Numbered from the stretch's first letter, positions 51,379 through 54,375 are shown. The stretch is 64,000 nt of DNA from Vicinamibacterales bacterium (GCA_050247355.1 JBFWUK010000010.1:4751-68750); one strand, 5' to 3'. Program-made: numbers and translations. Notes: generated by a model from the sequence alone, not told the origin.

Positions 51379-54375
51379 ATGGGTTGTGCCGTCAATTGCG
51401 CCGAGGTCACCGAACTGGCCGAGGACTACGCCGCCGATCGCCTGATCTGGATCGAGCGCTGGCGTTACCGCGCTCACCTCGCCACCTGTCCAGTCTGTCG
51501 TCGTCTGGCCGCGCTGCGCGCGGCGGCCGAGCTGGCGGCCAGTCAGCACTCGTCGGGACGTGGCGCGCACCGGACGCCGGTTCGCCCGTTCTGGAGCTGG
51601 CTGCTGGCGGTCACGATGGCCGGCACGATGCCGGTGATGGCGTTGGCCCAGTCGGGCAGCGCCACGGTTACCGGGACCGTGCGCGACAGCGCCGGCCGGC
51701 CCATCGCCGGCGCGGCGGTCCGACTTGATGGTGCCGAAACCGGGTTGGTTCGCCAGGCCACGAGCGGCCCGGCGGGCCAGTTCGAGTTCGGCGGCCTGCC
51801 GACGGCATTGCGCCAGGTCCTGCAGGTCGGCAGCGACGGCTTCCGCGCGGTCAGGCGCGATCTCGAGCCGCTCACGGCTGGCGAGCGCCGCCTGGTGGAC
51901 GTGCAGCTCGATCCTGCCGGCGTCAGCGAAGAAGTGGTCGTGACATCCGAGGGCCCGCTGGGGCGTGCCGTGTCGCCCGAACTCGGCGGCAACCTCGGTC
52001 GTGAACAGATCGAGCGGCTGCCGGTCAACGGCCGTGACCTGATCGCGGTGGCCTACCTGATTCCCGGCGCGGCCCCGGCCCGTGGCTTCTACAACCTCGC
52101 GCCGCGGCTCACCATCAACGGCGCGTCGTCGCTGACCACCAACTACAGCGTCGACGGTTTCGATAACACCGACCTGTTCCTGGGGGGGCCGAAGGTGCCC
52201 ATCACCATCGGCGCGACCGACAACCTCAAGGTGCTGGTCAATTCGTATTCATCGGAGTACGGACGGACCGGCAACGGCGTGTTCTCGGTGACCACCCGCA
52301 GCGGCACCAACACGCACACCGCCGACCTCGCGTATGTGCTGCGTCCCGGCGCCGTGTTCGATGCCCCGAACTTCTTTGCCCCGCTCGATGCGGCCGGTGA
52401 GATCGTCGACGACAGCTTTATGCGGCACCAGGGGGCGGCGTCGGTTGGTGGGCCCTTGCGAACCAACCGGTGGTTCTACTTTGCCGATGCCGAGCTGACC
52501 CGCGAACGCCAGGACGCCGTGCTGACCTCGCCGCTGGCCGCGGGTCTTGCCCCGACACGATTCGACAGCCAGACCGGAACGGCCAAGCTCGACGCCCGCT
52601 GGAGTGCCAGCCAGTCAACGACGCTGCGCTACCAGCCGTCGGACTATACGCACGATCAGGATCTCGGCTTCGTCGGCGGGTTGACCCTGCCGTCGGCCGG
52701 TCTGAAGGTGAACTACCGCAACCAGTTCACCGCCGTGACGCACCGCACGGTGGCAGGCTCGGCCGTCAACGAGATCGGTGTCCAGATCGGCCGCCTCCGC
52801 GCCGACTGGCAGCCCCTCGATGCCGGGCCCCGCGTGGTCATCACCGATCGCAGCGCGACCGTCGCGGTGATCGGTGCGGTCAGCGACAATTTTCTCTGGA
52901 CCGAAACCGACCTGCAGGTTCGCGATGTCTACACCCGGCTGGCCGGCCGCCACACGATCAAGGTGGGTGGGGACGTGCTGCGCGGCGACTTCGCGATCGA
53001 TTCCGGGCCTGGCGCGCGCGGGGCGTATGTCGTCGATCTCGACGGGCGCCGCATGACGCCGGCCGGTCCCTTTGTCACCGTCAACGACCTTCCCCGTGAC
53101 GTGACCGTGCTGTCGTACTCACAGTCGTTCGTCAATCCGGAGGTCGCCGCGGCGCAGGTGCTGGCCGGTGTGTTTGTCGAAGACACGATTCGCGCGTCCA
53201 GTGACATCACGCTGACGCTTGGCGCGCGCTGGGACTACGACTCGGTGACCAACACGCCCGCCAGTGACGGCGACTGGAACAACGTCGCCCCCCGGCTCGG
53301 CGTCAGTTGGACGCCGAAAGGCAGCACGCGCCACCAGCTGCGTGGCGGCTACGGCATCTTCTACGAGCGCATCCCATTCGCGGTCTACTCTGACACCCTC
53401 TTCAACAACCCGGCCGGCGGGGCCGTGTCGGTGACGTTCGCGCCGGGAACGCCGTTTGCCCCACCGCCGTTTCCCTCGTCTGTGCCGCGCGAGGCGATCG
53501 GCGCGCTGCCCTTGGCGGCGCAGCCGCCACGCAACGTCCAGGTGTTCGATTCGGAGATGAAGAGCCCATGGACCGAGCAGGTGTCGGCCGGATACTCGGT
53601 GTCGGTCACGCCTGATCTGTCGTTGAACCTCGACTACGTGCACAGCCGCGGGCGCAACCTCGTTCGCCGCGTCGACATCAACGCCCCGGCATCGGTCGCC
53701 GGCGGCATGCGATCGGTCGCCGAGGCCGATGCCACGCGCCCCGTCCTGCCGGTCGCCGGCGGCACGAGGTTAATCGAGCAGGACCAGACCAGCGGGCACA
53801 GCCACTTCGACGGCCTCTACGTCAACCTGCGCCAGCGGCTGCGCCGCGGGGTGGTACTCGATATCGCCTACACCCTGTCGCGGATCGAGAACGACACCGA
53901 CGACATCAACTTCCGGCCGGTCGACAGCCGCCGGCCCGACGCGGAGCTGGCGCCCAGCCTCAACGACCGTCGTCACGTCCTCGCCATCAATGGCCTGGTC
54001 CGCGCGCCGCTCGCCATCGACCTGGTGCCGATCCTGCTTCTGTCGAGCGGCCAGCCGCTGAATGTCACCACCGGCCGCGACGACAACGGCGACACCATCT
54101 TCAACGATCGCCCGGCCGGCGTGGCCCGCAACAGCGAGCGGACCTCGGGCTTCACGCAGTTCGACCTTGGCCTCGTCCGCCGCTTCGCCATCGGCCGCGC
54201 CAGCCTCGAAGCGCGCGCCGAGGTCTTCAACGTCTTCAACCGCACCAACTTCTCGGGGTTCTTCAACTGGGGCGCCAGTGGCGTGCGACCCGACGAGCAG
54301 GGCACGCTCGACTTCCAGCCTACCCAGGCAGGTCCTGCGCGCCAGTATCAGTTCAGCGGCCGGCTGCGGTTTTGA
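51379..54375 (+). CDS. CarboxypepD_reg plus TonB-dependent-receptor-like outer-membrane barrel, with an N-terminal zf-HC2 anti-sigma-like extension
   Basis: N-terminus [16 protein letters not shown]...[12 protein letters not shown] (H-x3-C-x2-C). Hydrophobic segment [23 protein letters not shown]. Then [20 protein letters not shown] (CarboxypepD_reg), a plug-like block [14 protein letters not shown], and a C-terminal RLRF beta-signal. Confidence 0.85.

Follow-up and report, generated by a model that had tools for sequence, protein, structure and literature searches.

The window analysed here is a stretch of 64,000 nucleotides from a Vicinamibacterales bacterium (GCA_050247355.1), corresponding to positions 4751-68750 of contig C10 (JBFWUK010000010.1) in a draft genome of 5.49 Mb and 86 contigs. 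On its plus strand, at 51379-54375, a single gene encodes a zf-HC2 zinc-finger module joined through a signal-peptide-like segment to an outer-membrane protein of the TonB-dependent-transporter type. The frame is open from a GTG at 51367 or an ATG at 51379 to the stop codon at 54373-54375 (1002 or 998 amino acids (aa), respectively). Since the GTG falls in the remnant of a DUF3179 gene, the ATG was taken as the conserved start. Exact-sequence look-ups with both products gave no database record.

The N-terminal 94 aa matched zf-HC2 (PF13490) over aa 7-41 with 26.6 bits (E 6.3e-6), and the whole protein did so with 22.5 bits, which is a borderline pass of the Pfam cut-off of 22.2 bits. Further on, the Pfam scan found CarboxypepD_reg (PF13620) at aa 96-177 with 55.3 bits (51664-51909), then a plug-like region (Plug, PF07715, aa 207-298) with 15.6 bits, under the cut-off of 23.9, and then the barrel, with 260.3 bits to OMP_b-brl_4 (PF25183) and 32.7 bits to TonB_dep_Rec_b-barrel (PF00593), above the cut-off of 27. 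An earlier note on this DNA, made from the sequence alone, had proposed the same succession of CarboxypepD_reg, plug-like region and barrel. No match to the STN domain (PF07660) was obtained by hmmscan with E up to 1. In the upstream spacer the GC content of third codon positions (GC3) was 0.58; from 51379 onwards it rose to 0.74-0.87, with 0.87 in the linker following the zinc finger. The one-gene zf-HC2/TonB-type barrel fusion was confirmed as genuine at the level of sequence, as the earlier note had held.

The hydrophobic segment between the two parts, described in that note as ending in an AxA-type site, has its predicted cleavage between ALA90 and Q91 (51648/51649). Positions -3 and -1 are both A, and the sequence reads ...PVMALA90 followed by Q91SGSATV. 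The cleavage motif is the same as in the barrel orthologues, and a charge of +3 immediately precedes the hydrophobic core. The segment homologous to signal peptides begins only at aa 64, which sets it apart from an ordinary N-terminal Sec signal peptide. Between 51379 and the mature domain the only in-frame ATG, GTG or TTG codons are those of M80 (51616), M84, V86, M87 and L89, all of them within the hydrophobic core, and the earlier objection to a start at any of these holds.

Orthologous loci and the junction

Loci in relatives, designated by L-numbers, were collected through barrel orthologues of 60-84% identity from metagenome-assembled genomes (MAGs) of Vicinamibacterales (Acidobacteriota). 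At the nearest of these loci (79-84% identity), the zinc finger is encoded apart, in a small open reading frame (ORF) of 51-86 aa, and the barrel has a start of its own and a signal peptide of 24-27 aa. In L077, a Joint Genome Institute (JGI) metagenome contig with a zinc finger 81% identical, the order is CDP-alcohol phosphatidyltransferase (minus strand), DUF3179 (plus strand), zf-HC2 ORF and barrel. The zinc-finger ORF (5001-5261) encodes 86 aa, and the barrel begins at a GTG (5254) in another frame with an 8-nt overlap with the zinc-finger stop; its signal peptide is (M)RSRLRAWTLVLAAGCATPALASA, cleaved ahead of QSASATV. L040 (79%) has the zinc finger at 1173-1430, a separate DoxX ORF at 1363-1854, and a barrel starting MTVLVRT. 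In L021 (84%), a 215-aa zf-DoxX frame (6001-6648) scored 46 bits for DoxX and 27.6 bits for zf-HC2, both above the cut-offs, and the barrel ATG (6645) lies in an ATGA overlap, with the signal peptide MKIVARRFWTWTLVLTALCATPVLASA ahead of QSASATV. The L021 zf-DoxX frame keeps the ATG codons of DoxX, and the zinc-finger and DoxX ORFs of L040 overlap in different frames.

The signal peptides of the barrel orthologues are ordinary and 24-28 aa long, and at the more distant loci (60-73%) an upstream zinc finger was absent. The earlier note had suggested looking for the same N-terminal extension on related barrels; none carried it, the signal peptides of the distant orthologues being plain, and a second fusion did not emerge. 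Nor did the closest loci, with two or three separate genes, bear out a reading of the architecture as an evolved one that follows a new logic of signalling.

Breakpoints were placed by pairwise alignment with cheap long gaps. Positions 51347-51506 of the window correspond to L021 5969-6128 (80% identity), and the window from 51579 onward corresponds to L021 from 6656 onward. Between the aligned blocks lie 72 nt in the window compared with 527 in L021, so that approximately 455 nt are missing. The 57-nt tail at 51511-51567 showed no homology beyond shuffle range to the matching intervals of L021, L077 and L040 in local alignments, and occupies the place held in the relatives by the variable tail of the small zinc-finger ORF, the DoxX gene and the stop. 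Past the tail, V68 R69 P70 F71 W72 S73 W74 of the window align gap-free and in frame with A5 R6 R7 F8 W9 T10 W11 of L021. The position of the L021 ATG is CAC in the window (H64, 51568), and that of the L077 GTG start (equivalent to L021 V4) is CCG (P67, 51577). Both orthologue start codons were thus lost by base substitution.

A second deletion lies upstream. The window matches L021 5981-6040 at 51359-51418, where 51359-51377 are the last 19 nt of DUF3179, and approximately 1550 nt of DUF3179 coding sequence, present at the equivalent position in L021, L077 and L080, are replaced in the window by approximately 65-75 nt. The divergent promoter region before it was kept; window 51151-51293 is 85% identical to L077 3300-3440 and 90% identical to L021 4290-4413. 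Compared with the relatives, the window has therefore lost the intervening DNA, the stop of the zinc-finger ORF, both orthologue start codons and the upstream DUF3179 gene, and the two frames coincide. The sequence CCTGTAACACTATCGCATCT at 51257-51276, between the phosphatidyltransferase and the deleted DUF3179 gene, hardly differs between the window, L021 and L077 and may be a promoter or operator. The CRP-type palindrome of the neighbouring regulon was not found at the spacer promoter, including CCTGTAACACTATCGCATCT, and a sigma-70 promoter and terminator scan of 51150-51700 gave nothing.

An assembly or sequencing artefact, with the zinc-finger ORF and the barrel separate in the organism as in L077, would agree with the draft state of the genome, with the presence of the junction in this assembly only, and with the zf/DoxX frame difference in the neighbouring MAG locus L040, which is possibly itself an error. 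No single indel restores two genes, however, because the barrel frame is without ATG, GTG or TTG from 51379 to 51616, upstream of M80. The orthologue starts were altered by substitutions, the signal-peptide codons run in frame and gap-free to L021, and GC3 is coding-like across the junction. An artefact is on this evidence very unlikely. The possibility that an out-of-frame GTG at 51560 ('MARTGRRF...') is a relic start, to be rejoined by one indel, was rejected since the codons of the signal peptide match up with L021 in frame 0 and gap-free.

The module protein is 93% identical to those of L021 and L077 at approximately 80% DNA identity. Over the 44 zinc-finger codons, dN/dS was 0.035 against L021, 0.089 against L077 and 0.062 against L040, and it was 0.12 for the mature barrel, which is 84% identical to that of L021 and of exactly the same length, 908 aa, in the window, L021 and L077. 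The ratio of lineage-unique non-synonymous to synonymous changes in the barrel was 0.50 for the window, and 0.47 and 0.50 for the unfused L021 and L077. Both modules thus appear to be under purifying selection, and a relaxation on the fused lineage was not seen, though a very recent fusion would leave none.

Selection also bears on the thought that the fusion is a product of decay, having crippled export or expression of the barrel in a locus on its way to a pseudogene. Two deletions relative to the closest relatives, the loss of both orthologue start codons, a region already devoid of DUF3179, bufferin genes and DoxX, a bufferin core located elsewhere in the genome (C12:46981-49353) and the weakest hydrophobic core among the orthologues compared all point in that direction, as does the plasticity of the locus in relatives: a phage-type integrase adjoins the barrel gene in L077 (8166-9203) and transposases adjoin the small zinc-finger ORF in L078 (2861-4640), both of which fit a plastic locus. 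Against decay, the ORF is intact over 998 codons with a mature part of exactly the orthologue length, the barrel has a low dN/dS and a lineage-specific ratio no higher than in the unfused relatives, the zinc finger is as constrained as stated above, and the conserved promoter region was retained. Decay was accordingly considered unlikely.

Translation of the barrel might instead begin at a non-canonical internal start, such as the CTG at 51532 (L52), which would give a 39-aa signal peptide and leave the zinc-finger frame as a relic, either untranslated or of no separate relevance. In-frame CTG codons are present at 51505, 51514 and 51532, and the pre-sequence from 51532 has a charge of +3 and the same cleavage site. 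CTG starts are, however, rare in bacteria, and a reading of the sequence showed nothing like a Shine-Dalgarno site upstream of them. Strong purifying selection and coding GC3 also argue that the zinc-finger codons are translated and, as no stop codon intervenes, their translation must run into the barrel. An internal start was considered very unlikely.

The fusion probably arose when two cistrons, normally separate and tightly coupled, merged in frame in this lineage, with no evolved signalling design. In the ancestral state, a small zf-HC2 protein of the cytoplasm, 51-86 aa long, would have been encoded just after the DUF3179 gene, followed by a middle section of bufA1, MNIO, a DUF2063-type partner and DoxX, or of DoxX only, or of nothing, and by an Oar-type outer-membrane protein with its own start and a Sec signal peptide of 24-27 aa. 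In the present gene, translation would begin at ATG 51379, and residues 1-63 would fold into a zinc-binding helical module and stay in the cytoplasm. Residues 64-90 would serve as an N-in signal sequence for Sec, and signal peptidase I would cleave after ALA90. The 908-aa mature protein would then proceed to the outer membrane as in the relatives, and a zinc-finger stub of approximately 90 aa would be left in the inner membrane, short-lived until cleared by signal-peptide proteases. The topology proposed in the earlier note, of a cytoplasmic zinc finger, an N-in hydrophobic segment and AxA cleavage, is physically reasonable. Its choice between an unusually long n-region and a left-over anti-sigma stub falls away, as both describe one molecular event. 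We infer that translational coupling, by the 8-nt or ATGA overlap in the relatives, was replaced by covalent 1:1 co-production, which need not bring a new function.

Several points weigh against this explanation. The junction rests on one assembly. The measured purifying selection could largely pre-date the fusion. The hydrophobic core of the fused protein, with a 12-aa hydropathy maximum of 1.67, is weaker than in any of the orthologues compared (1.88-2.84). Export past a folded extension of 63 residues and cleavage at A90 are predicted from sequence rules. Finally, the fused copy is the only small zinc-finger copy in the genome, leaving room for its tethering to matter.

The zinc-finger module and its family

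The module was 43% identical over 37 aa (BLASTP, E 5e-10) to the 76-aa zf-HC2 anti-sigma factor encoded at 36526-36756 of the window, so the paralogy recognised in the earlier note stands. So do the H-x3-C-x2-C ligands that it named: H33, C37 and C40, and with them C7, were invariant in an alignment of 12 sequences spanning the small zinc-finger and 76-aa anti-sigma families, in agreement with the ligand pattern of zinc-binding anti-sigma factors (ZAS), an upstream Cys plus H-x3-C-x2-C. R27, R29, L34 and R41 were also invariant across the small zinc-finger and the sigma-adjacent 76-aa families. Only the first approximately 44 aa are conserved, the small zinc-finger family being without the conserved C-terminal part, PELLERFRNWRR, of the 76-aa paralogue.

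The NCBIfam anti-sigma models remained under their cut-offs for the fused module (NF052368 with 29.2-33.9 bits vs 50, NF052375 with 17.3 vs 100 and RsrA TIGR03988 with 11-16 vs 62.5). A profile of the module gave a single match among PDB sequences, the ZAS RslA (3HUG, E 0.03). The AlphaFold2 (AF2) model made with the 12-sequence alignment had helices at 3-18, 24-36 and 38-58 with a predicted local distance difference test (pLDDT) score of 84-90, a low-confidence helix at 71-81, and a mean pLDDT of 73.8. Foldseek placed RsiW (5WUQ) and RslA (3HUG) on top among PDB structures, not significantly (E 0.8-2.5, probability 0.15-0.57). The module would thus seem to resemble in its working, and to descend from, the N-terminal half of a ZAS, with a putative anti-sigma function only.

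No sigma gene adjoins the fused gene, as the earlier note had observed; the nearest one (36750-37418) is found at a distance of approximately 14 kb on the minus strand. The small zinc-finger ORFs of L081 and L083 are 2-3 kb distant from a sigma gene already provided with an anti-sigma factor of its own, and in L077, L078, L079 and L080 no sigma gene was found within 4-5 kb of it. Of the 13 zf-HC2 matches in the window's genome, only the present one runs into a barrel; the second long frame among them encodes a zf-HC2/TPR/CHAT protein. The fused copy scored 100 bits in the search for small zinc fingers and the next match, the 76-aa anti-sigma factor, 41.5 bits.

The fusion was not found elsewhere. 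A region-restricted search with aa 1-100 against 5.8 billion protein clusters returned 2515 full-length candidates, none significant at the N-terminus, and the module profile gave no other strong match and no other fusion in 401 genomes of the order. A long zf-HC2 frame in genome G021 was tried as a second fusion and rejected, being a zf-HC2/TPR/CHAT protein orthologous to the one at C5:78312 in the window's genome. A degenerate DNA motif for WIER.R...HL..C was found in L021 and L040 only, among 185,579 species genomes. The matches listed by a metagenome scan with aa 1-114 were barrel N-termini sharing the common TVTGTVRD pattern, and are uninformative on the junction. The N-terminal architectures of TonB-dependent transporters described in PMC6434023 are CarboxypepD_reg, CarbopepD_reg_2, STN and AMIN only.

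HMMER with aa 1-94 against 1.84 billion representative proteins gave only 16 matches. The best seven of these are stand-alone proteins, 51-86 aa long, in which a variable tail comes after the pattern M[GS]CAxxCxE... We noticed that members of this rare family lie directly upstream of bufA1 in clusters of the bufferin type in Vicinamibacterales, as truncated paralogues of the local 76-aa anti-sigma factor. The small zinc-finger ORFs have the coordinates 3572-3727 in L081, 4001-4201 in L083 and L084, 226-381 in L082 and 1125-1325 in L085. In L083 and L084, the order is Crp, extracytoplasmic function (ECF) sigma factor, 76-aa zf-HC2 anti-sigma factor, a thioredoxin-like fragment, DUF3179, the small zinc finger and the bufferin core, made up of BufA1 (PF10048), MNIO (PF05114), HvfC_N (PF09836) and DoxX. 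In L081 it is anti-sigma factor, sigma factor, Crp, thioredoxin-like, BrxC-like, small zinc finger, BufA1, MNIO, HvfC_N, DoxX and a barrel of the CarboxypepD_reg/OMP_b-brl_4 type.

This L081 barrel, an Oar-type gene for a TonB-dependent-transporter-like protein (6185-7727), directly follows DoxX (5727-6188) with a 4-nt overlap at the cluster end, which hints at a possible outer-membrane component of the bufferin system. A looser linkage of barrel and bufferin genes, over 2-4 kb, was seen in L034, L045, L031 and L046. L080 has DsbD, Redoxin, CDP-alcohol phosphatidyltransferase, DUF3179, the small zinc finger, EgtB/EgtD-like genes and DoxX; here (4402-6722) the small zinc finger is followed by this EgtB/EgtD-like ergothioneine pair, DinB_2/FGE-sulfatase and Methyltransf_33, and then DoxX, which is another thiol-related filling of the same slot. 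L078 and L079 have Redoxin-type genes and then the small zinc finger. Taken together, the series from L081 through L021 and L040 to L077 and the window reads as a progressive loss between the small zinc finger and the barrel, with the window as the apparent end state.

Table 1. Coordinates of the fused gene, of its neighbours in the window and of the bufferin core on contig C12 of the same genome.
Feature	Coordinates	Strand	Remarks
Exported TlpA/Redoxin-like thiol-disulfide oxidoreductase	49686-50621	+	Redoxin, AhpC-TSA and Thioredoxin matches; synteny anchor
CDP-alcohol phosphatidyltransferase	50646-51248	-	PF01066, 42 bits; divergent; synteny anchor
Divergent promoter spacer	51249-51378		51249-51293 conserved with relatives; 51359-51377 DUF3179 3' remnant
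zf-HC2 (ZAS-like) module, aa 1-44	51379-51510	+	putative zinc ligands C7, H33, C37, C40
Non-conserved tail/linker, aa 45-63 (19 aa)	51511-51567	+	GC3 0.87; no homology to relatives beyond shuffle range
Signal-peptide-like segment, aa 64-90	51568-51648	+	own start codon absent
Mature Oar-type TonB-dependent-transporter-like outer-membrane protein	51649-54375	+	908 aa plus stop; CarboxypepD_reg, plug-like region, barrel
76-aa zf-HC2 anti-sigma factor	36526-36756	-	PF13490, 32.7 bits; full-length paralogue of the fused module
ECF sigma factor	36750-37418	-	Sigma70_r2, Sigma70_r4_2; candidate partner of both zinc-finger proteins
Crp/Fnr-type regulator	38270-38953	-	76% identical to L083 Crp; same ancestral neighbourhood
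BufA1	C12:49066-49353	-	
MNIO	C12:48169-49053	-	
HvfC	C12:47400-48227	-	
DoxX	C12:46981-47397	-	

The neighbours of the fused gene (Table 1) relate the window to these clusters. The phosphatidyltransferase anchor is common to L021, L077 and L080 and has the same position in L077 and L080, and a 312-aa homologue of the Redoxin-like protein lies upstream in L080 and L078. The 76-aa anti-sigma gene overlaps the stop of the ECF sigma gene. Its product is 66% identical to that of L083, which is encoded approximately 2 kb upstream of the small zinc-finger ORF, and the sigma factor is 67% identical to the one that clusters with the small zinc finger and bufA1 in L083. The gene order Crp, sigma, anti-sigma is also that of L081, L083 and L084. 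By tblastn on the own genome, no homologues of BufA1, MNIO, DUF2063 or DoxX were found in the window, so it does not contain a Buf1 cluster; the genome's bufferin core is located on C12 and includes the only DoxX matches to the DoxX queries of the cluster. A divergent ECF sigma gene (49456-49956) and an 80-aa zf-HC2 anti-sigma gene (50030-50272) are found between the C12 core and a DUF3179 gene (50453-52081).

In an adaptive device of the kind that the earlier note put forward, signal-peptidase processing would leave a membrane-anchored anti-sigma stub and thereby couple sigma-factor control to export in the manner of RsiV. The module is paralogous to a genuine sigma-adjacent anti-sigma factor and keeps all zinc-ligand positions; the small zinc finger of relatives lies 2-3 kb from an ECF sigma/anti-sigma pair with orthologues in the window; the zf-DoxX frame of L021 is a second independent in-frame joining to a membrane protein; signal peptidase is the established site-1 protease for RsiV (PMC4183432); and the genome has no small zinc-finger copy other than the fused one. 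The fusion is, however, a singleton that is not conserved and has no sigma gene beside it, the module missed the NCBIfam anti-sigma cut-off (29-34 bits vs 50), and its fold match to RsiW and RslA was not significant (E 0.8-2.5). The homologous small proteins are entirely without a membrane anchor, so tethering is not part of the normal function of the family, and a constitutive cleavage would supply no regulatory input. Such a device is highly improbable.

Two in-frame joinings of the module to a membrane protein, zf-DoxX in L021 and zf-barrel in the window, occurred among four close relatives, and one may ask if membrane tethering of the small ZAS-like module was selected and not accidental, providing an export-linked control of the ECF sigma factor of the bufferin cluster. 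This would be a very improbable turn of events. If true, removal of the stub through intramembrane proteases would link this sigma factor's activity to the export of an outer-membrane protein; the circuit would be RsiV-like, its extracytoplasmic part being an entire transporter.

Comparison with known systems

The gene is a fusion variant, found in one genome, of the precursor of an Oar-type transporter. With the in-frame merger as the preferred explanation, it illustrates how an eye-catching arrangement of domains can come about in a high-GC genome, where coupled overlapping cistrons lost a stop and a start, and singleton architectures of such kind need orthologue comparison before mechanisms are proposed. 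It is also a natural test case for the handling, by Sec and signal peptidase, of an outer-membrane precursor with a 63-residue zinc-binding domain before its signal. The unrelaxed selection on the barrel suggests that such an extended precursor can be handled.

Members of the Oar subclass have a CarboxypepD_reg N-terminal extension, a plug and a 22-strand barrel (PMC6434023). The mature part of the fused protein resembles that of Oar of Myxococcus xanthus (PMC6434023), with CarboxypepD_reg and then a TonB-type barrel. It differs from the subclass in the fused pre-sequence of 90 aa, which opens with a zf-HC2 module and has no start codon of its own, and in the sub-threshold Plug.

With the ZAS proteins RsrA, RslA (3HUG) and RsiW (5WUQ), the module shares H-x3-C-x2-C plus an upstream Cys and a score that reached the Pfam cut-off. 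Unlike these, it is without the C-terminal part of the 76-aa paralogue and without an adjacent sigma gene, and it missed the NCBIfam cut-offs.

In the FecA/FecR transducers, as here, there is a link, genomic at least, between a TonB-type barrel and ECF sigma/anti-sigma regulation. The fused protein differs from these in having no STN match and no FecR-like partner, and its linkage arose by deletion. Since its anti-sigma-like part is N-terminal to the signal peptide, this part would be cytoplasmic, unlike in FecA/FecR.

RsiV likewise has an N-terminal cytoplasmic anti-sigma-like domain, one hydrophobic segment that includes a site for signal peptidase, and an extracytoplasmic part; lysozyme binding gates its cleavage, and the gene for its sigma factor lies next to its own (PMC4183432). 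The fused protein, a singleton that shows the sequence pattern of the first two elements, differs in having an ordinary and presumably constitutive cleavage site.

Finally, the comparison exposed a family of small ZAS-like ORFs heading Vicinamibacterales clusters for bufferin-type ribosomally synthesised peptides with post-translational modifications (RiPPs) that end in an Oar-type transporter. The published Buf1 core consists of precursor, MNIO, DUF2063 and DoxX, with SigF/NrsF as regulators, NrsF being the only anti-sigma factor mentioned (PMC11626156, PMC12452194). In term searches, 'TonB' did not occur in these two papers, and 'zinc-finger' and 'DUF3179' did not occur in PMC12452194. As in the Buf1 clusters, an ECF sigma/anti-sigma pair lies upstream in L081, L083 and L084, where the small zinc finger heads the core, and in L081 the barrel follows the core. 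Unlike these clusters, the window locus lost the core, and the anti-sigma factor is of the soluble zf-HC2 type and not NrsF. The small zinc-finger ORF and the Oar-type transporter may be extra regulatory and transport parts of this metal-stress system. The fusion itself is of modest interest, and this association of a small zinc finger with bufferin clusters is of somewhat greater interest.

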